A stretch of DNA of 32,000 nt from Mycobacterium leprae TN (GTDB lineage Bacteria; Actinomycetota; Actinomycetes; Mycobacteriales; Mycobacteriaceae). Positions 3,290 to 13,542 of this stretch are shown here, piece after piece. The stretch spans positions 270,001 through 302,000 of the forward strand of contig NC_002677.1 of NCBI RefSeq assembly GCF_000195855.1, read 5' to 3'. The notes under the pieces were generated by a model, which worked only from the letters and a program-made list of their open reading frames with translations, did no database searches and was not told the DNA's origin. Both the position numbers and the translations under genes were made by a program. The stretch's first letter is position 1, and each line of letters opens with the position of its first letter.

Positions 3290-6008
<2,719 letters not shown>

Positions 6009-6011
6009 GGT

Positions 6012-6649
6012 GGTGGTGTTGTGGTGGGCTGGTGGGGTGTGGGTGGTTGATCTGCGCTAGAAGGTTGCCGTATGTGCCGCCGACGGCCGGATCATCGATG
6101 CACTGTTCACTAACACGATACTGCTGCACCCGGCGGCATGCCTGCTTGCTGGCTGAGGGCCGGTCAACAAGCCGCCGACACCGATACCAGCGGCAGAAAT
6201 GGTGCAAGGGATAACATCAGGTGCGAATAGTTATACCGTGCACGGGGACGTGCCTGTTCAGGTGCGGCCACATTGACCACGCCGACACCTCAAGGCCATG
6301 ACATGCACACTAAAACGCCCCTACCCCGCGGCGCTAACAACTATCCTCACACTCACGCCTGCATCGATATCGCCTTCAGCACAGCCCAGGTGCCCAGCCC
6401 CTGGCATCATCAACATGTAGACCAAGCAGCATCCACCACCGACATGCTTACGTGCGCCGCGCTAATCGTGTCCACTGCGGCAAAGCACACGAAGCCTCAT
6501 CGAAAGCAGGCAGTCAGCCACCCACCAACAAAAACCCCGCAACACAGCAAAACACGTCAACAGGATTCCGGGCTGCCCCCCACGACTACCGAACATATCG
6601 GCCAGTCATAAAACGCAAAAACAGCCATTTCACCCACCACCTATGAAAC
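6012..6649 (+). repeat. RLEP dispersed repeat, copy 1
   Basis: 638 bp, exact reverse complement of 10138-10775 (position x pairs with 16787-x). All three track ORFs are duplicated with identical proteins, and I compared the gaps and ends directly. It contains caccgataccagcggcagaa at 6179-6198, the RLEP LP2 primer as I recall it. Confidence 0.92.
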
Positions 6650-6706
6650 CAACCGAACAACTCACCGCCACAGACACAAGACAGCAGAGCCCGGGAACCG
6701 TCGCAG

Positions 6707-7777
6707 CTATGTACAGGCCTTGACCTCGCGATGATTGCGGAACACGCTCCAGGTGAGTGCTGCGCCGATGAAGAGCACGCCCACCAAGGCGGTGACGGCC
6801 TCGAGGATTTCGAATCGCGGTTCGACAGAAAGCAACATCATCACCGATAGCGCACCAATCGCCCAGTGGGCACCATATTCCAGGTACACATAACGGTCCA
6901 ATGCGTCCTGGTGGACCAGGTATATGGTGATCGAACGGATGAACACCGAGCTGATCAGTCCCAGACCCAGCGCGATGATGACTGGGTCAGAGGTGATCGC
7001 AAAAGCGCCGGTGACTCCGTCGAAGGAGAAGGTGGCGTCGAGAATCTCGAGATAAAGGAATCTGACTAGGCCGGCCCTGCCTGCCATCCTCCGCCCGGAA
7101 GCCGTGTCAATGTCGGGTGGTCGAAACGCTCGGTTCAATACGCTTACGAGCAGATACGTCACCAAGCTCAGAAGCCCTGCGATCAGCACCTTCGCGCGCT
7201 CATCGCCAGAGTGCGTCAGCGCAGTGGCGATGAGAACCAACACAAATATAGCCACCACCGACAGCGGACCAAGTCGCCCGATGCGGGTGAAGGGGGCCTC
7301 GATCCACTTGAGCCACTTGATGTCTCGGTCTTGAAAGACGAAATCCAGGAACAGCATCAACAGGAACGTTCCGCCAAAGGCTGCGATCTGTGGGTGGGCC
7401 GACATTATGAGCTTTTGATAGCTAGGTGAGCCGTCTGGAAATTCCAGCGCGTGATTGGGCGGCGGATGTAAAGCCAAGTCCATGGTGCGAACGGGATCCA
7501 GCTTGGCGGTTGCCCAGACGATAACCGCTGGGAAGATCAGGCGCATACCGAATGCTGCGATGAGGATCCCGATCGTCAGAAACATCTTCCGCCAAAATCG
7601 ACTCATCTGCTTGAGTATCGCAGCGTTGATGATGGCGTTGTCGAACGACAAGGACACTTCGAAGATAGCGAGCACTATTAGCGGCAAGAGGGAGGCAAGC
7701 CCACCGTAGATGTATGCGACTAAGAGGGCTATCGCGGTTGTTAAAAGCGAGATGCCGAAACCGCGGAACGCTGCCAT
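6707..7777 (-). CDS. Integral membrane protein, DUF475/TerC-like (Rv3629c-like)
   Basis: 356 aa ORF, about 9 hydrophobic helices, signature EVSLSFDNAIINA near the N-terminus. ATG at 7777 is preceded by aggaagga. Confidence 0.85.
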   Translation of the reverse strand: MAAFRGFGISLLTTAIALLVAYIYGGLASLLPLIVLAIFEVSLSFDNAIINAAILKQMSRFWRKMFLTIGILIAAFGMRLIFPAVIVWATAKLDPVRTMDLALHPPPNHALEFPDGSPSYQKLIMSAHPQIAAFGGTFLLMLFLDFVFQDRDIKWLKWIEAPFTRIGRLGPLSVVAIFVLVLIATALTHSGDERAKVLIAGLLSLVTYLLVSVLNRAFRPPDIDTASGRRMAGRAGLVRFLYLEILDATFSFDGVTGAFAITSDPVIIALGLGLISSVFIRSITIYLVHQDALDRYVYLEYGAHWAIGALSVMMLLSVEPRFEILEAVTALVGVLFIGAALTWSVFRNHREVKACT

Positions 7778-7833
7778 GAATCCTTCCTGTTACCCACCCA
7801 CAATAGCGGCGCTGAGCGCAGTCGCGGATCTAT

Positions 7834-7871
7834 TTGACTCCGTGCAATTAGGTTGACTCCGTGCAATTAGG
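7834..7871. repeat. Perfect tandem duplication, 2 x 19 bp (ttgactccgtgcaattagg)
   Basis: Units at 7834-7852 and 7853-7871 are identical. A degenerate third junction, gcattaggttcagttgact, lies at 7892-7910. The array sits 57-94 bp upstream of the DUF475 gene start. Confidence 0.9.
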
Positions 7872-7938
7872 TATTTTCAAACTGTGACGATGCATTAGGT
7901 TCAGTTGACTGGAGGTGTCGCCATAGTGACTAAGGTCG

Positions 7939-8002
7939 GAGGCGCTGTTGGATCCAATGGTATTCCCCAACTAGGGAATACCATTGGATCCAACAGCGCC
8001 TC
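7939..8002. repeat. Perfect 29 bp inverted repeat (palindrome) with 6 nt spacer
   Basis: gaggcgctgttggatccaatggtattccc (7939-7967), spacer caacta, gggaataccattggatccaacagcgcctc (7974-8002). The arms are exact reverse complements. Each arm also contains the self-palindrome ttggatccaa. Confidence 0.92.
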
Positions 8003-8040
8003 GCGGAGGTCAGTTGCGTGTGGCAGTGTGACACGGGTCG

Positions 8041-9047
8041 GTGCGGAGGACAGTATTGACTGCGTTGTGCGGCTATGCGGTGATTTATTTGGCCGCCCGC
8101 GACCTTAGCGCCGACTGGATTCTCGGTATTCGGGGTGTTTTGGGAAGCGTTCGATCTGTTCACTGCTGCCAATGGCTTGTTCCAAGAAAATCCACCTGCG
8201 AGGTCCGCGCTACGGGCTATGTAAACGATTTGACGACCATTCCGAGTAAGCTTAACTCTTTCCGCTGCGGGTCGCCGGGACGGTTGGTGTCGCTGCCACC
8301 ATCGTGCTCGCAGGGAACTTACTCGTGTGGAGTGGGCAAACGTTCGCCGAGGCACTCCGGCTTTCGGTGGCCCTGCTTAGCGTTGGTTTGTGCGAGTTTT
8401 CCCTGCTAGCCACACTGCTGGTCTCTCCCACGGCACGCCTGCACACACCCTGCGGCACTGCGATGTTCCTGCGCAGCGGCCGCCTATTCGATCACCGCTG
8501 CCGGTATCAGCGCGATTTTGGTTATGGGGTTTCTAGTACTGCTGAAGCTGACTTCGAGTGAGTTCGGGGCACAAGGCGGCGTCGTCATCCTGACTTTGAC
8601 GTTGACTCGTGCGCCGTTGCTGGTGCAGTTGACCTCCGTGCAGGGCAACCTCGTAGCTCATTTCCTTGACGAGCGCTTGCAACCGGCTTCGGTCGGTTCT
8701 CGTGGCCGGCAGCGATCATCGGCGGTATCGGTGCGGTAGGTGTGCTAGCGGCAGGCATTGTGGGGCTATGGCTGCTGCGCGTAGAGTTTAGTCCGCAGTA
8801 CGATGCCAGTAGTAACGTGGCTGACTGCGGCCGCGGTGGAGATTGCTATGTTGACGCTCACCGGCCCAGCAGCGGTAGCGGCGGCGCTGTATTGTGCGTA
8901 TTCACTGGGCTGGGTTTGTGCGACAGCCGTGTCGGCATCGCTGCAGCTGCAGACCCGCACTGTTGTGCGGCCCGCTGGTGGAGATCAGCGTCCACTTGGC
9001 GGCACTGGCACGTACCAGGAAACCATCCGGCCTGACCAGCGTGTATC
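8041..9047 (+). pseudogene. Fragmented polytopic membrane protein (Rv3630-like)
   Basis: Five short overlapping + strand ORFs in shifting frames encode hydrophobic segments (e.g. LRLSVALLSVGLCEFSLLATLLV, VMGFLVLLKL, LAAGIVGLWLL, LTAAAVEIAMLTLTGPAAVAAALYCAYSLGWV). They lie directly upstream of the GT2 gene, where Rv3630 lies in M. tuberculosis. Boundaries are approximate. Confidence 0.45.
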
Positions 9048-9770
9048 TTGTTGGGTATCGAAACGTGTTACCCCGGCGTCTGGATCGTCATTCCCGCCTT
9101 CAACGAAGCCGCTATCATCGGTGAAGTAGTCACAGATGTGCGCGCGGTTTTCGATCATGTCGTCTGCGTGGATGACGGCAGTGCCGACGGAACCGGAGAG
9201 ATCGCTCTGCGCGCTGGGGCGCACCTAGTCCGTCATCCAGTCAACCTGGGCCAAGGTGCGGCGATCCAGACCGGGGTTGAGTACGCTCGCCGGCAGCCGG
9301 CAGCGCAGGTGTTCGCCACGTTCGATGCCGATGGCCAGCACCGCGTCAAAGACCTGGCAGCGTTGGTAGACCGGCTCGGCGCGCATGACGTCGACGTCGT
9401 TATCGGAACGCGGTTCGGCCGCCTCGACGGGGGCCGGTTGCCGATTCTGAAAGGACCACCGTTTTTGAAAAGGGTTGTGTTGCGGACTGCGGCACGGTTG
9501 AGCCGACGCGGTCGCCGGTTAGGTCTCACCGACACCAATAATGGCCTGCGAGTGTTCAATAAGAAGGTGGCCGACGGGCTCGATATCACAATGACCGGCA
9601 TGAGCCATGCCAACGAGTTCGTCATGTTGATCGCCGATAACCACTGGCGCGTCGATGAGGTACCGGTGGAGGTGCTGTACACCGAGTACTCGAAGTCGAA
9701 GGGGCAACCACTGCTTAATGGCGTCAACATCATCTTTGACGGGTTCCTGCGCGGGAGAATGCCGAAATGA
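9048..9770 (+). CDS. ppgS: Family 2 glycosyltransferase, polyprenyl-phosphate sugar synthase type (Rv3631/PpgS-like)
   Basis: 240 aa. Motifs VIPAFNEA, DDGSADGT and FDADGQH are typical of GT2 Dpm1/GtrB-like enzymes. TTG start at 9048 or 9051. The ppgS name comes from the Rv3631 assignment recalled from the literature. Confidence 0.85.
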   Translation: MLGIETCYPGVWIVIPAFNEAAIIGEVVTDVRAVFDHVVCVDDGSADGTGEIALRAGAHLVRHPVNLGQGAAIQTGVEYARRQPAAQVFATFDADGQHRVKDLAALVDRLGAHDVDVVIGTRFGRLDGGRLPILKGPPFLKRVVLRTAARLSRRGRRLGLTDTNNGLRVFNKKVADGLDITMTGMSHANEFVMLIADNHWRVDEVPVEVLYTEYSKSKGQPLLNGVNIIFDGFLRGRMPK

Positions 9771-9783
9771 AAAGGAGCGAAAG

Positions 9784-10125
9784 ATGAACTGGATCCAGGT
9801 GCTGCTGATCGGATCGATCATCGTGCTGCTGATTTACTTGCTGCGGTCGCGCCGCAACGTGCGATCTCGGGCCTGGGTGAAGGTCGGGTACATCGCGTTT
9901 GTGCTCGGCGGTGTCTATGCTGTGCTCCGGCCTAACGACACCACCGTGGTGGCGCACTGGTTTGGGGTATGCCGCGGAACTGATCTGATGCTCTATGCAC
10001 TAATTATGGCGTTCAGTTTTACTACGCTGAGCATCTACATACGGTTCAAGGACTTGGAGTTGCGCTACGCGTGTTTGGCTCGCGTCGTTGCGCTGGAAGG
10101 AGCGCGCGCGCCCGAGCCGTTCTAG
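9784..10125 (+). CDS. Small membrane protein, DUF2304 (Rv3632-like partner of the GT2)
   Basis: ATG 9784 is preceded by aaaggag. 113 aa with 3-4 TM helices (MNWIQVLLIGSIIVLLIYLL..). The track's upstream extension to 9655 overlaps the GT2 gene and was discarded. Confidence 0.8.
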   Translation: MNWIQVLLIGSIIVLLIYLLRSRRNVRSRAWVKVGYIAFVLGGVYAVLRPNDTTVVAHWFGVCRGTDLMLYALIMAFSFTTLSIYIRFKDLELRYACLARVVALEGARAPEPF

Positions 10126-10137
10126 GGTGTTGTGGGT

Positions 10138-10775
10138 GTTTCATAGGTGGTGGGTGAAATGGCTGTTTTTGCGTTTTATGACTGGCCGATATGTTCGGTA
10201 GTCGTGGGGGGCAGCCCGGAATCCTGTTGACGTGTTTTGCTGTGTTGCGGGGTTTTTGTTGGTGGGTGGCTGACTGCCTGCTTTCGATGAGGCTTCGTGT
10301 GCTTTGCCGCAGTGGACACGATTAGCGCGGCGCACGTAAGCATGTCGGTGGTGGATGCTGCTTGGTCTACATGTTGATGATGCCAGGGGCTGGGCACCTG
10401 GGCTGTGCTGAAGGCGATATCGATGCAGGCGTGAGTGTGAGGATAGTTGTTAGCGCCGCGGGGTAGGGGCGTTTTAGTGTGCATGTCATGGCCTTGAGGT
10501 GTCGGCGTGGTCAATGTGGCCGCACCTGAACAGGCACGTCCCCGTGCACGGTATAACTATTCGCACCTGATGTTATCCCTTGCACCATTTCTGCCGCTGG
10601 TATCGGTGTCGGCGGCTTGTTGACCGGCCCTCAGCCAGCAAGCAGGCATGCCGCCGGGTGCAGCAGTATCGTGTTAGTGAACAGTGCATCGATGATCCGG
10701 CCGTCGGCGGCACATACGGCAACCTTCTAGCGCAGATCAACCACCCACACCCCACCAGCCCACCACAACACCACC
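10138..10775 (-). repeat. RLEP dispersed repeat, copy 2 (inverted relative to copy 1)
   Basis: Exact reverse complement of 6012-6649. It contains tgcatgtcatggccttgagg (10480-10499) and the complement of caccgataccagcggcagaa (10589-10608). Together these define the 129 bp RLEP amplicon. gcagtatcgtgttagtgaa and tcgatgatccggccgtcggcg (qPCR targets as I recall them) are also present. Confidence 0.92.
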
Positions 10776-11542
10776 CTTAGGCCTCAATCACCCCAACAAT
10801 GCCCCGTCCGATGCTGACTCGCACAAAGACCGACAGCACAATAAGCTGTCGCGCTCCTTGTTTGCCCGCGCATAGGCGTTTTGTCGTTACTCGCGTGCTG
10901 CCGCATCGAACCTGCAACGAGTGCAGCAGGTTTTGGGCGCTCGCTAGCTGTTGCTGTTCGTTGGCTGAGAAGGTCACTGCGGCGTCGGCGAATCGCCTCA
11001 GCCTCGGCGATCTTCAGCGGACTGATGTACTCGTGGACGGCATCGCGGTATTCGAGTTGCGCTGCTCGATCGCTGGCGATGTCGTTGGGTCATTCCGGCC
11101 GCAGCCGGTCCGGGCGACGTTTCGCCTTGTGGGAAGGCGATGGTCAGTGGATTGCGCATGCCGGTCATCAACGGGAAGTGCAGAAGTCTAGCGATATCGA
11201 GTTCGTAGTCCAACCACCGGGCGCCAATCCGCTCGTGAGCTTAGATGAGTTTGGTCAGCTCCCGGCGGGAGCTTTCCTCGTTGGTTCGCAGTCGGCCGGA
11301 TGCCTCGGTCAGGGTGATCTTGGTTTGCTGCTTCAGGTGTTAGCGCTCTAGCCGTCGCTTAGCACGCCGCTCGTTCGCGGCGGCAATAGGCCCTCAAGCC
11401 ACCGCCGAACGCGCCGCTCAGTGGGAACGATCAGCCACTAGAAAGTCGCAGCGAAATGCAACATTGGGGTCACGTGGCTAGGATGCCACCGGGCATCGGC
11501 GAGCACTCCAGCAACGATCTTCAGCTCGTCGCGAAATCCGTG

Positions 11543-12031
11543 TCAGTGCCCGCCAGCCTTGAACCGTTCCACTGAACGCTGCACTTCTGCTTCAGCTTCG
11601 TCTCGGCCTACCCAGTCTGCGGCTTTCACGAACTTGCCTGGCTCTAGATCCTTGTAGTGTACGAAGAAATGCTTGATCGCGTCCAGCTCGAAGGTCGGAA
11701 CATCGATGATGCCGTGGATGTGATCCCATCGGTGGTCGTTGACTGGAACGCACAACACCTTGTCGTCGCCGCCGTGCTCGTCGACCATCCGGAACATACC
11801 TACTGGACGTGCCTCCACTAGTACGCCAGGGAACAGCGGCTCCGGTAGCAGCACCAGTGCATCCAGCGGGTCGCCGTCTTCGCCGAGGGTGTCTTCAATG
11901 AAGCCGTAGTCTGTCGGATAGGCCATCGGGGTGTAAAGGTAGCGGTCTAGACGCACCCGCCCCGTTTTGTGGTCGACCTCGTACTTGTTCCGCTGGCCTT
12001 TCGGAATTTCGATGGTCACGTCGAATTGCAC
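11543..12031 (-). CDS. ppa: Inorganic pyrophosphatase
   Basis: 162 aa. Family I PPase motifs [31 protein letters not shown] and DDKVL. Confidence 0.95.
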
Positions 12032-12156: not shown

Positions 12157-13542
12157 TTGAATCCTATTCGCTGGCAGAAATCTTACGTAGTTGTCGGATT
12201 GGCCATGCTGGCGTTCATCATCGCCGCGGTGAAGGCGGCAACCGTCTTCACCACGGGCGGCCACAGCACGAATGGAGCACGGTCCGCGGTACCGCCTCCG
12301 CGGGCGTCTACGGTCAAGCCGGCATTGGTTCCGGTAACCGAAACCGCCGTGGTACCCAGCGTTGGCGGACTGGCTGCCGCGCTGGCGTCGGCTTTGGCAG
12401 ATCCCAGTTTGGGTAGTTTTGGGGGACGGATCACCGATGCGATGACTGCCAAGGAACTCTGGCAGCAACAAGATGACATGCCGTTGGTGCCAGCGTCGGC
12501 CAATAAGCTCTTGACCGCAGCTGCGGCGCTGTTGACACTGGACCGCCAGACTCGGATCAGCACCCGGGTGGTGGCTGCAGGCCCGAATGCCCAAGGGCCT
12601 GTCGTTCTGGTGGGTGCTGGGGATCCGACCCTGTCGGCCGCATCGCCCGACCAGAGCACCTGGTATAGGGGTGCGCCGCGGATCAGTGACCTTGTCGAAC
12701 AGGTTCGTCGCAGCGGCGTGACGCCTACGGCTGTTCAGGTGGATACCTCGCTGTTCACCGGTCCGACGATGGCGCAGGGCTGGGATCCTGCCGATGTGGA
12801 CAACGGCTACACTGCCCCGATCGAGTCGGCGATGATCGACGCTGGGCGTATCCAGCCGACAACCGTCAAATCACGACGGTCACGTACCCCAGCTCTGGAC
12901 GCCGGGCGGGAATTGGCCAAGGCCCTGGGGGTCGCTCCCGATGCGGTTACAATCGTCAAGGCATCGTCTGGGGCGCGGCAGCTGGCTGTGGTGCAGTCAG
13001 CGCCGCTGGTCCAGCGGTTATCCGAGATGATGGACAACTCCGACAACGTGCTGGCCGAATGCATCGGCCGCGAGGTAGCGGCCGCCATAAACCGGCCTTT
13101 GAGCTTTGCCGGCGCGGTCGACGCGGTGACCAACCGGTTAGGTACAGCGCATATCGACACCACCGGCGCTGCTCTGGTGGATTCTAGCGGGTTGTCGGTC
13201 AACAACCGCTTGACCGCCAAGACACTCGGCGGTGCGGTGCAGGCGGCGGCGGGGCCGGATCAACCGGTGTTGCGTGCGCTGCTGGATCTGCTCCCGATCG
13301 CCGGCGGCAGCGGCACGTTATCGGACCGCTTTCTCAGTTCGGCGACCCACCAGGGTCCGGCCGGCTGGTTACGTGCCAAGACCGGCTCGTTGACCGCTAT
13401 TAATTCTTTGGTCGGGGTCGTCACTGACCGCAGCGGTCGGGTGTTGACATTCGCGTTCATCTCCAACGACGCTGGCCCGACCGGTCGTGCCGCGATGGAC
13501 GAGCTTGCTACTAGGCTGTGGATGTGCGGGTGCGCTACGTGA
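12157..13542 (+). CDS. dacB: D-alanyl-D-alanine carboxypeptidase/endopeptidase, PBP4 (S13) family (Rv3627c-like)
   Basis: 461 aa. N-terminal TM/signal segment, SxxK as PASANK, SxN as NSDNV, KTG as AKTGSL. TTG 12157 is preceded by aggaggg. Confidence 0.9.
   Translation: MNPIRWQKSYVVVGLAMLAFIIAAVKAATVFTTGGHSTNGARSAVPPPRASTVKPALVPVTETAVVPSVGGLAAALASALADPSLGSFGGRITDAMTAKELWQQQDDMPLVPASANKLLTAAAALLTLDRQTRISTRVVAAGPNAQGPVVLVGAGDPTLSAASPDQSTWYRGAPRISDLVEQVRRSGVTPTAVQVDTSLFTGPTMAQGWDPADVDNGYTAPIESAMIDAGRIQPTTVKSRRSRTPALDAGRELAKALGVAPDAVTIVKASSGARQLAVVQSAPLVQRLSEMMDNSDNVLAECIGREVAAAINRPLSFAGAVDAVTNRLGTAHIDTTGAALVDSSGLSVNNRLTAKTLGGAVQAAAGPDQPVLRALLDLLPIAGGSGTLSDRFLSSATHQGPAGWLRAKTGSLTAINSLVGVVTDRSGRVLTFAFISNDAGPTGRAAMDELATRLWMCGCAT

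Follow-up and report, generated by a model that had tools for sequence, protein, structure and literature searches.

The segment between galE1 and ppa in M. leprae TN very probably represents a fixed, ancient chromosomal inversion that arose when two RLEP-family repeats in opposite orientation recombined. A repeat search of the window (the whole 32 kb stretch of DNA analysed) returned one inverted pair, at 6012-6649 and 10138-10775 (638 nt each, 100% complementary), with a spacer of 3,488 nt, and no other long repeat besides it. The features of the locus are the following.

5001-6008, plus strand: galE1-like NAD-dependent epimerase, left outer flank (Pfam PF01370, 4.8e-57), collinear with M. 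haemophilum to 6008; its TAG stop at 6006-6008 lies 3 nt upstream of the left RLEP
6012-6700, plus strand: left RLEP (exact arm 6012-6649, 3' extension 6650-6700), 5' end toward galE1 and 3' end toward DUF475
6707-7777, minus strand: DUF475/TerC-family membrane protein, ML0205 (Pfam PF04332, 7e-141; JK2ML_0205 in Kyoto-2), Rv3629c-like by position, intact, inverted with respect to relatives and with a C-terminus a few codons shorter than theirs
8035-9028, plus strand: Rv3630-like membrane-protein pseudogene, recovered as fragments in three reading frames by tblastn with the intact orthologue L003; frameshifted here, intact in M. lepromatosis and M. uberis
9048-9770, plus strand: GT2 glycosyltransferase, ML0207 (Pfam PF00535), intact and inverted; orthologue of Rv3631/ppgS according to PMC3756022
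9784-10125, plus strand: DUF2304 membrane protein, ML0208, Rv3632 orthologue (Pfam PF10066; 113 aa in the Br4923 gene call), whose TAG stop at 10123-10125 sits within a retained CTAG
10126-10775, minus strand: right RLEP (exact arm 10138-10775, 3' end 10126-10137), 5' end toward the pseudogene adjoining ppa
10780-11503, minus strand: pseudogene of a conserved protein of ~240 aa, here called gapORF, found by tblastn in three frames and with no Pfam family match; its place in relatives is between DUF475 and ppa, and it is intact in M. lepromatosis
11543-12031, minus strand: inorganic pyrophosphatase ppa, right outer flank (Pfam PF00719), collinear with relatives
12157-13542, plus strand: S13 peptidase (Pfam)

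The published RLEP qPCR primer GCAGTATCGTGTTAGTGAA (PMC2570796) matches once in each arm, which identifies the arms as genuine RLEP, and a further 638-nt copy at 2.68 Mb in the Br4923 genome (L091) is identical to them at 638 of 638 positions. RLEP copies have been described as sharing a middle part of 488-545 bp that is specific to M. leprae, surrounded by variable flanking sequence (PMC8620619), and both arms carry the diagnostic PCR target in the core and variable sequence around it. The reported number of dispersed copies is 37 per genome; four distinct ones were present among the sequences compared here, namely the two in the window, the 2.68 Mb copy and a copy in L082 with 47 additional nt at its 5' end. 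At both 3' ends the elements extend somewhat beyond the exact repeat: the left one reaches 6700 through 51 nt (6650-6700) that it has in common with the 2.68 Mb copy and that represent the canonical end, and the right one ends in 12 nt (10126-10137) that are truncated and non-canonical. The preliminary description, in which two exact inverted RLEP copies bracketed a four-gene segment, was confirmed, with three corrections: the elements run a little past the exact repeat, identity between the arms is confined to this strain, and the Rv3630-like member of the four is a frameshifted pseudogene.

The sole ORF within RLEP (6303-6611) matched Pfam DUF1067; no transposase domain was found in the element with Pfam, and a plasmid database queried with RLEP gave zero matches. 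In both leprosy bacilli, the galE1/DUF2304 junction hinted at a MITE-like element that has terminal inverted repeats (CTAGGGTGTTG...) and duplicates a CTAG target. We dropped this as a general rule, as the apparent 3' repeat is the truncated canonical 3' region, and both the DUF475 junction and the independent 2.68 Mb copy have neither a CTAG nor a duplication. ORFs of 76 aa from the M. lepromatosis repeat RLPM are listed in one 90% protein cluster with the RLEP ORF, but BLASTP showed no similarity, and we take their listing as a clustering oddity.

The genes enclosed by the arms are flipped in order and strand compared to every non-leprosy mycobacterium examined (about 80, including M. uberis and M. 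haemophilum), while the flanks are collinear. The comparison set comprised the 80 closest relatives, without M. tuberculosis; 78 genome loci, M. haemophilum and a metagenome-assembled genome from ENA all had the order up622-, galE1+, DUF2304-, GT2-, Rv3630-, DUF475+, ppa-, dacB+, and the window reads galE1+, DUF475- ... GT2+, DUF2304+, ppa-. In these relatives, galE1 and ppa have the enclosed genes as native neighbours; in the window, the genes are reversed between inverted repeats that stand at both ends, with breakpoints that coincide with the repeat edges. In the dot plot against M. haemophilum, the diagonal is plus up to 6008, minus from 6716 to 10126 and plus again from 10778, the switches being the RLEP edges. 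Both the flip in order and strand and a dot-plot inversion ending at the repeats had been anticipated in the preliminary description. The H37Rv strand pattern on which it drew is the same as the consensus of the relatives, and the H37Rv gene order agrees with that consensus and with M. angelicum, a species that also has a PhyH (Rv3633-like) gene. The segment's GC skew agrees in sign with that of the flanks in the window (+0.074) but takes the other sign in relatives lacking the inversion (-0.01 to -0.04); this change fits an inversion, and we discarded it as a clock because it is too weak for dating.

M. uberis and M. haemophilum preserve the ancestral junctions: neither junction carries a repeat there, and the CTAG stops overlap. 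Each of the two sites in M. uberis is a palindromic CTAG, which provides the stop codon for both strands. At both breakpoints, convergent genes abut with their stop codons (galE1/DUF2304 and DUF475/gapORF), so that no transcription unit is broken. In the window, CTAG stands at the galE1 side and at the DUF2304 side, as CCTAG ahead of the left 5' end and as CTAG past the right 3' end. The missing Rv3633 remnant that had been pointed out earlier needs no explanation, since M. uberis, M. haemophilum and 32 other relatives already show galE1 and DUF2304 with overlapping stop codons; room for a gene between the two was found in 2 of 76 relatives, one of which has a PhyH gene.

We propose that, after the lineages of M. 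uberis and M. haemophilum had separated, one element would have inserted at each of these two convergent stop-codon meetings in the ancestor shared by M. leprae and M. lepromatosis. The inverted copies would then have crossed over and flipped the intervening ~3.4 kb. With breakpoints between 3' ends, every gene would have kept its promoter and its stop codon, and the inversion would therefore have been neutral and kept in both species. The repeat family would later have been homogenised within each species, while its core diverged between species until it could no longer be aligned. We infer that the inversion came about by homologous recombination and not through transposition, in a single event that preceded speciation, and that the similarity of the arms is maintained by gene conversion.

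In M. lepromatosis FJ924, the locus is collinear with the window at 85-89% identity, repeat cores excepted, and has the same flipped order. Its inverted arms (L001, 6846-7470 and 11113-11723) are RLPM_04 and RLPM_03, catalogued by Silva et al. 2022 (Table S3A; PMC9248898), and they occupy both orthologous junctions. Junction sequences are common to the two species, such as CAACACCCTAGAACGGCT at the DUF2304 side. This overturned the earlier expectation that M. lepromatosis would be RLEP-free with the ancestral order, an expectation that was borne out for M. haemophilum. An RLEP-free relative with the order of the window would speak against an inversion; M. lepromatosis is not such a relative because it has repeats. 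Its repeats at both junctions together with the flipped order indicate that the insertions, and most likely the inversion, are ancestral rather than specific to M. leprae. As judged from these junctions, both RLEP-family insertions would have arisen in the common ancestor of the leprosy bacilli, and the inversion itself most likely also predates the split of M. leprae from M. lepromatosis. The FJ924 assembly was made by aligning 75-bp paired reads to a template from M. leprae, and its orientation at the locus is therefore not independent evidence. In a second M. lepromatosis genome (CP155806.1), RLPM likewise links DUF475 to galE1, and the two assemblies disagree on the ppa side of the segment. 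Furthermore, if the ancestor carried inverted repeats, repeated flipping would still give a matching orientation in two lineages half the time.

An alternative explanation, which we consider improbable, is that a single element at the DUF475/gapORF junction made an intramolecular replicative copy into the galE1/DUF2304 CTAG, which would have produced the second copy and the inversion together. The pattern of ends and flanks fits such an event, as the copy that retains gapORF on its 5' side is flanked by DUF2304 on its 3' side, the one that retains DUF475 on its 3' side is flanked by galE1 on its 5' side, and CTAG occurs at both new junctions; however, two insertions followed by a crossover predict this pattern equally well. 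RLEP, with its DUF1067 ORF, also has no recognisable transposase, the 2.68 Mb copy shows neither CTAG nor target duplication, and the DUF2304-side 3' end is truncated compared to the canonical one, whereas a fresh replica should be whole. The crossover between two independent insertions that we favour and a one-step replicative event leave identical junctions, which the sequence itself does not separate.

The segment has the same orientation in three complete M. leprae genomes (the window's strain TN, Br4923 and Kyoto-2), whose assemblies are possibly not mutually independent. Short-read drafts and Logan contigs break off at the RLEP edges (L083 spans 6655-10139 exactly), scaffold L082 has an N-gap inside RLEP that is bridged into a different RLEP locus, and both are uninformative on orientation; assembly CP029543.1 lacks the RLEP copies and is hence silent. 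Short reads are unable to orient 3.5 kb between 640-nt inverted repeats, and one M. leprae assembly is even without the repeats, which could suggest an assembly artefact, or else the flipped order could be the ancestral mycobacterial arrangement. We regard this pair of explanations as scarcely credible, as the three complete genomes agree, with the reservation on their independence just given, and the opposite order in about 80 relatives contradicts an ancestral arrangement.

Differences between the two arms amount to none in the window's strain, two positions in Kyoto-2 and one in Br4923. The window and Br4923 differ at 5 positions in 13,071 nt, all five within the arms. The strain differences cluster at three RLEP positions (333/342/421), with a shuffled pattern: the two arms read TTT/TTT in the window, TTT/TCC in Kyoto-2 and TCC/CCC in Br4923. 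This shuffling could reflect either gene conversion or assembly noise in repeats.

An active invertible segment, which would still flip in M. leprae populations through its near-identical arms, possibly with a regulatory effect, is very unlikely. In its favour are the arms themselves (638 nt, 99.7-100% identical), their haplotypes in the three strains, which suggest recent exchange between copies, and the confinement of all window-versus-Br4923 differences to them. However, a single orientation was found in the three complete genomes and in M. lepromatosis, no recombinase gene was detected with Pfam in or beside the segment among all ORFs of at least 80 aa between 3.3 and 13.5 kb, and with convergent 3' ends at both breakpoints neither promoter nor coding sequence would be reconnected.

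More tentatively, RLEP copies, including both arms, might still exchange sequence through gene conversion on the time scale of the living M. leprae strains, a few thousand years. Such ongoing conversion would explain the arm haplotypes alongside essentially no other nearby differences. Homologous recombination would then be at work in a species that passes for strictly clonal and almost invariant, both orientations of the 3.5 kb block could be present at low frequency, and copy-specific RLEP haplotypes would provide a new class of strain marker. Orthologous repeat copies are identical within each of the two species but have cores that cannot be aligned between them, and at their few variable sites the M. 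leprae strains show a shuffled pattern. This pattern bears on whether recombination still operates in M. leprae, and on the trust placed in RLEP-based assays and in the repeat regions of reference assemblies.

Several known systems can be compared with this locus. In a site-specific invertase switch, a recombinase is present and promoter or coding sequence is reconnected; here, the ORFs of at least 80 aa in 3.3-13.5 kb include no recombinase, and the breakpoints lie between convergent stops. The locus also differs from a composite transposon, as the flanking RLEP copies have no recognisable transposase and the cargo is native to the locus. It is closer to inversions mediated by IS elements or rRNA operons in clonal pathogens and to the flip-flop isomers of plastid inverted repeats, in which long inverted repeats likewise recombine homologously and reverse the intervening DNA without sequence loss. 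Those repeats are functional and both isomers are often observed, whereas RLEP has no known function or transposase and one orientation is seen. Since the arabinogalactan-modification genes (the ppgS/Rv3632 orthologues) are intact with their promoters, the inversion has no evident functional consequence.

The RLPM_03/RLPM_04 pair (PMC9248898) resembles the RLEP pair in being inverted, in occupying orthologous junctions and in enclosing orthologous genes in flipped order. The termini of RLPM are homologous to those of RLEP (5' end, ~35 nt; 3' end, ~95-124 nt at 75%), but its ~500-nt core is unalignable save for short shifted patches, despite flanks that are 85-89% identical, and the Rv3630-like gene and gapORF are intact in M. 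lepromatosis, whereas both are pseudogenes in M. leprae. RLEP and RLPM have been located at synteny breaks and blamed for rearrangements (PMC12035532, PMC9248898), and repeat-mediated rearrangement of this kind is already known (Cole et al. 2001; Silva et al. 2022). The RLEP-associated breaks in M. leprae reported by Cole et al. 2001, as far as the summary in PMC12035532 describes them, share with this locus the repeat family, the organism, the discontinuity of gene order at repeats, the 3' gene ends and the proposed cause, recombination between dispersed copies, with no essential difference. The locus described here adds a clean, fully resolved example of dispersed repeats reshaping the genome of a leprosy bacillus, with repeat-free ancestral junctions preserved in M. 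uberis and M. haemophilum and both insertions apparently dating from before the split of M. leprae from M. lepromatosis.

The only long repeat in the window, as found by a repeat search, is an inverted pair at 6012-6649 (left arm) and 10138-10775 (right arm), 638 nt long, 100% complementary and with a spacing of 3,488 nt, which bears out the preliminary description of two exact reverse-complement RLEP copies. The repeat was identified as RLEP, a dispersed repeat of M. leprae, because the RLEP qPCR primer (Truman et al., PMC2570796) matched each arm once and a further 638-nt copy identical to the arms is located at 2.68 Mb in M. leprae Br4923. Near-identity to Br4923 and Kyoto-2 (99.96-99.98% across 13-16 kb) confirms the window as M. 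leprae. An RLEP-internal ORF (6303-6611, 102 aa, mirrored in the right arm) matched Pfam DUF1067 at 7e-58; this predicted ORF may be a mere reading frame within the repeat, and a domain search of it returned DUF1067 only and no transposase. Its 90% protein cluster also includes unrelated 76-aa ORFs of RLPM, the M. lepromatosis counterpart of RLEP. The genes in and around the segment are as follows:

5001-6008, + strand: galE1-like epimerase (Pfam)
6707-7777, - strand: DUF475/TerC membrane protein (Pfam)
8035-9028, in three frames: Rv3630-like pseudogene, inside the segment
9048-9770, + strand: GT2 glycosyltransferase (Pfam)
end at 10125, + strand: DUF2304 protein (Pfam)
10780-11503, - strand: pseudogene of gapORF (a conserved ~240-aa gene between DUF475 and ppa in relatives), bordering the right RLEP by its gene end and without a Pfam family
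11543-12031, - strand: inorganic pyrophosphatase, ppa (Pfam)
12157-13542, + strand: S13 peptidase (Pfam)

With the DUF475 protein as query and one genome per species, 80 loci were returned and then searched by tblastn with seven window proteins. Wherever both flanks were present, non-leprosy mycobacteria had a single arrangement (up622- galE1+ DUF2304- GT2- DUF475+ ppa- dacB+), whereas the window reads up622- galE1+ DUF475- GT2+ DUF2304+ ppa- dacB+, so that the enclosed genes are flipped in both order and strand, as the first reading had claimed. The ancestral order was also found in M. haemophilum, in an ENA metagenome-assembled genome and in M. uberis, which has been described as the nearest relative that the leprosy bacilli have (PMC12035532). 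A blastn dot plot with M. haemophilum showed a plus diagonal up to 6008, a minus diagonal over 6716-10126 and a plus diagonal again from 10778; the switches at 6008/6716 and 10126/10778 match the repeat edges and leave the single inverted diagonal that had been anticipated. GC skew is weak, but agrees with the inversion. The H37Rv gene order given in the preliminary description equals the ancestral order of the relatives examined. The inversion is real, and the earlier observation of it was correct.

At the ancestral junctions, galE1 and DUF2304 of M. uberis overlap in a palindromic CTAG (7468-7471 of the M. uberis locus L004) that supplies each gene with its stop codon, and DUF475 and gapORF likewise share a palindromic CTAG as double stop codon. 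A four-base overlap of the galE1 and DUF2304 stops occurred in 34 of 76 relatives and a gap above 1 kb in only two, which accounts for the lack of an Rv3633 remnant. M. angelicum carries a 291-aa PhyH gene (Rv3633-like) between galE1 and DUF2304. The window retains the galE1 TAG (6006-6008), three bases ahead of RLEP, and the DUF2304 TAG (10123-10125), which lies within a preserved CTAG; a few C-terminal codons of DUF475 are gone. Each of the four RLEP flanks is the 3' end of a gene; the inversion therefore swaps convergent partners and parts no gene from its promoter. The inversion is neutral.

Gene decay at the locus differs by species: the Rv3630-like gene is decayed in M. leprae and intact in M. 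lepromatosis and M. uberis, and gapORF is decayed in M. leprae and M. uberis and intact in M. lepromatosis (intact gapORF and Rv3630-like counterparts at 6131-6847 and 8562-9794 of L001, the M. lepromatosis FJ924 locus). At the 5' end of the Rv3630-like pseudogene lies a 64-nt hairpin (7939-8002; perfect 29-bp stem, 6-nt loop; RNA fold -62 kcal/mol, z = -10.7); at this place M. lepromatosis and M. uberis show no more than the short quasi-palindrome CCAATGG..ATT...AAT..CCATTGG. The left arm of the M. leprae hairpin seems to have been overwritten with a copy of the right arm, as is characteristic of a template-switch (quasi-palindrome) mutation. Upstream of the DUF475 gene, at 7834-7872, TTGACTCCGTGCAATTAGG occurs twice as a perfect 19-nt tandem duplication, its unit being single-copy in M. 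lepromatosis. The window's only Rfam match is a tRNA gene at 1901-1973 (+; RF00005, 74.5 bits).

M. lepromatosis had been proposed as an RLEP-free relative with ancestral order; instead, FJ924 showed the same flipped order as the window and an inverted pair of its own. The two sequences are collinear across 17.5 kb at 85-89% identity, repeat cores excepted, and the FJ924 pair sits at both orthologous junctions (L001 6846-7470 and 11113-11723; mutually identical over the common 611 nt), and its members are listed as RLPM_04 and RLPM_03 by Silva et al. 2022 (PMC9248898, Table S3A). RLEP and RLPM have common termini and junction sequences, and the similarity of their cores is limited to short, shifted patches, consistent with the 'some homologous genome locations' and at best 75% identity over 126 nt reported by Silva et al. 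(PMC9248898). Repeats at orthologous junctions in both species imply two insertions that are older than the M. leprae/M. lepromatosis split and younger than the divergence of the M. uberis and M. haemophilum lineages. FJ924 cannot independently orient the segment because its 75-bp paired reads were assembled by alignment to an M. leprae template. In a second complete M. lepromatosis genome (CP155806.1), RLPM likewise links DUF475 to galE1, and unrelated DNA follows the other RLPM instead of gapORF/ppa. The most parsimonious reading, though not a proven one, is that the segment inverted once, in an ancestor common to both leprosy bacilli; the inversion is old and most likely present in both by descent. 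CP155806.1 (locus L092, 1-4861) and FJ924 (here locus L093) agree from RLPM_04 through galE1 onward and diverge completely upstream of RLPM_04 (gene-poor DNA in CP155806.1 versus gapORF/ppa/dacB), owing either to strain-level RLPM-mediated rearrangement or to assembly error in one genome.

A crossover between two inverted insertions would flip the enclosed segment, and it predicts the observed end-to-flank pattern (copy A with its 5' end at galE1 and 3' end at DUF475; copy B with its 5' end at gapORF and 3' end at DUF2304). A one-step intramolecular replicative event, making second copy and inversion together, predicts the identical pattern, and sequence alone cannot separate the two. RLEP lacks a recognisable transposase and the 3' ends of the window copies are unlike, one canonical and the other truncated; recombination between two copies is favoured on both grounds, and also because RLEP/RLPM recombination is generally held responsible for the synteny breaks of the leprosy bacilli (PMC12035532, PMC9248898). 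A MITE-like element with CTAG target duplication was dropped, as the independent Br4923 copy at 2.68 Mb (L091) has neither feature. A further RLEP copy (L082 3717-4059; GCA_001653495.1, LYPH01000069.1) lies beside CbiQ/ABC-transporter genes, and 47 nt on its 5' side are identical to window 10779-10825, the 3' end of the gapORF pseudogene, which suggests that it derives from the copy at this locus and took part of the flanking DNA along. On the same scaffold, the DUF475 flank is connected to the unrelated CbiQ/ABC locus across an N-gap that falls within RLEP.

Orientation is identical in the window, Br4923 and Kyoto-2. In the 'complete' assembly CP029543.1 (L099; 3,187,112 bp), window position 10778 is contiguous with 10043, and 6730 with 6068; this assembly has neither RLEP copy and also lacks some adjoining sequence. 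Draft M. leprae contigs end at the repeat edges. A Pfam search of ORFs of at least 80 aa across 3.3-13.5 kb gave no recombinase in or near the segment, and a flip at these breakpoints would give no promoter or coding sequence a new connection. From three same-orientation genomes and the content of the locus, nothing points to an invertible switch.

Although the copies have been in place since before the species split, and the DNA flanking them is 11-15% diverged between species, arms within a species differ at only 0-2 positions, which suggests concerted evolution. Over 13,071 nt the window departs from Br4923 at five positions, every one of them in the arms (6353, 6432, 10355, 10434 and 10443, equal to RLEP positions 342, 421, 421, 342 and 333), an outcome with a chance of ~9e-6 if differences were evenly spread. 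Kyoto-2 differs from the window at 10355 and 10434, plus unique-sequence SNPs at 7449 and 8888. Arm haplotypes at RLEP 333/342/421 are shuffled among the three strains (window TTT/TTT, Kyoto-2 TTT/TCC, Br4923 TCC/CCC), and another Br4923 RLEP copy has TTT. The pattern resembles that of gene conversion between copies as recent as the divergence of the strains, though consensus errors made in assembling repeats would produce a similar picture. It is the only lead here that is perhaps worth further work.

A literature search found no paper naming this particular 3.5 kb inversion. It is nevertheless evident from the published gene numbering, part of which we infer: ML0204-ML0210 presumably correspond to Rv3634c, 3629c, 3630, 3631, 3632, none and 3628, where ML0205 as the DUF475 gene and ML0207/ML0208 as Rv3631/Rv3632 are supported and the remainder follows from gene order and the H37Rv numbering. 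The inversion is an instance of a phenomenon already described, repeat-linked synteny breaks having been noted in the M. leprae genome in 2001 (Cole et al., as related in PMC12035532) and again for M. lepromatosis (Silva et al. 2022, PMC9248898).
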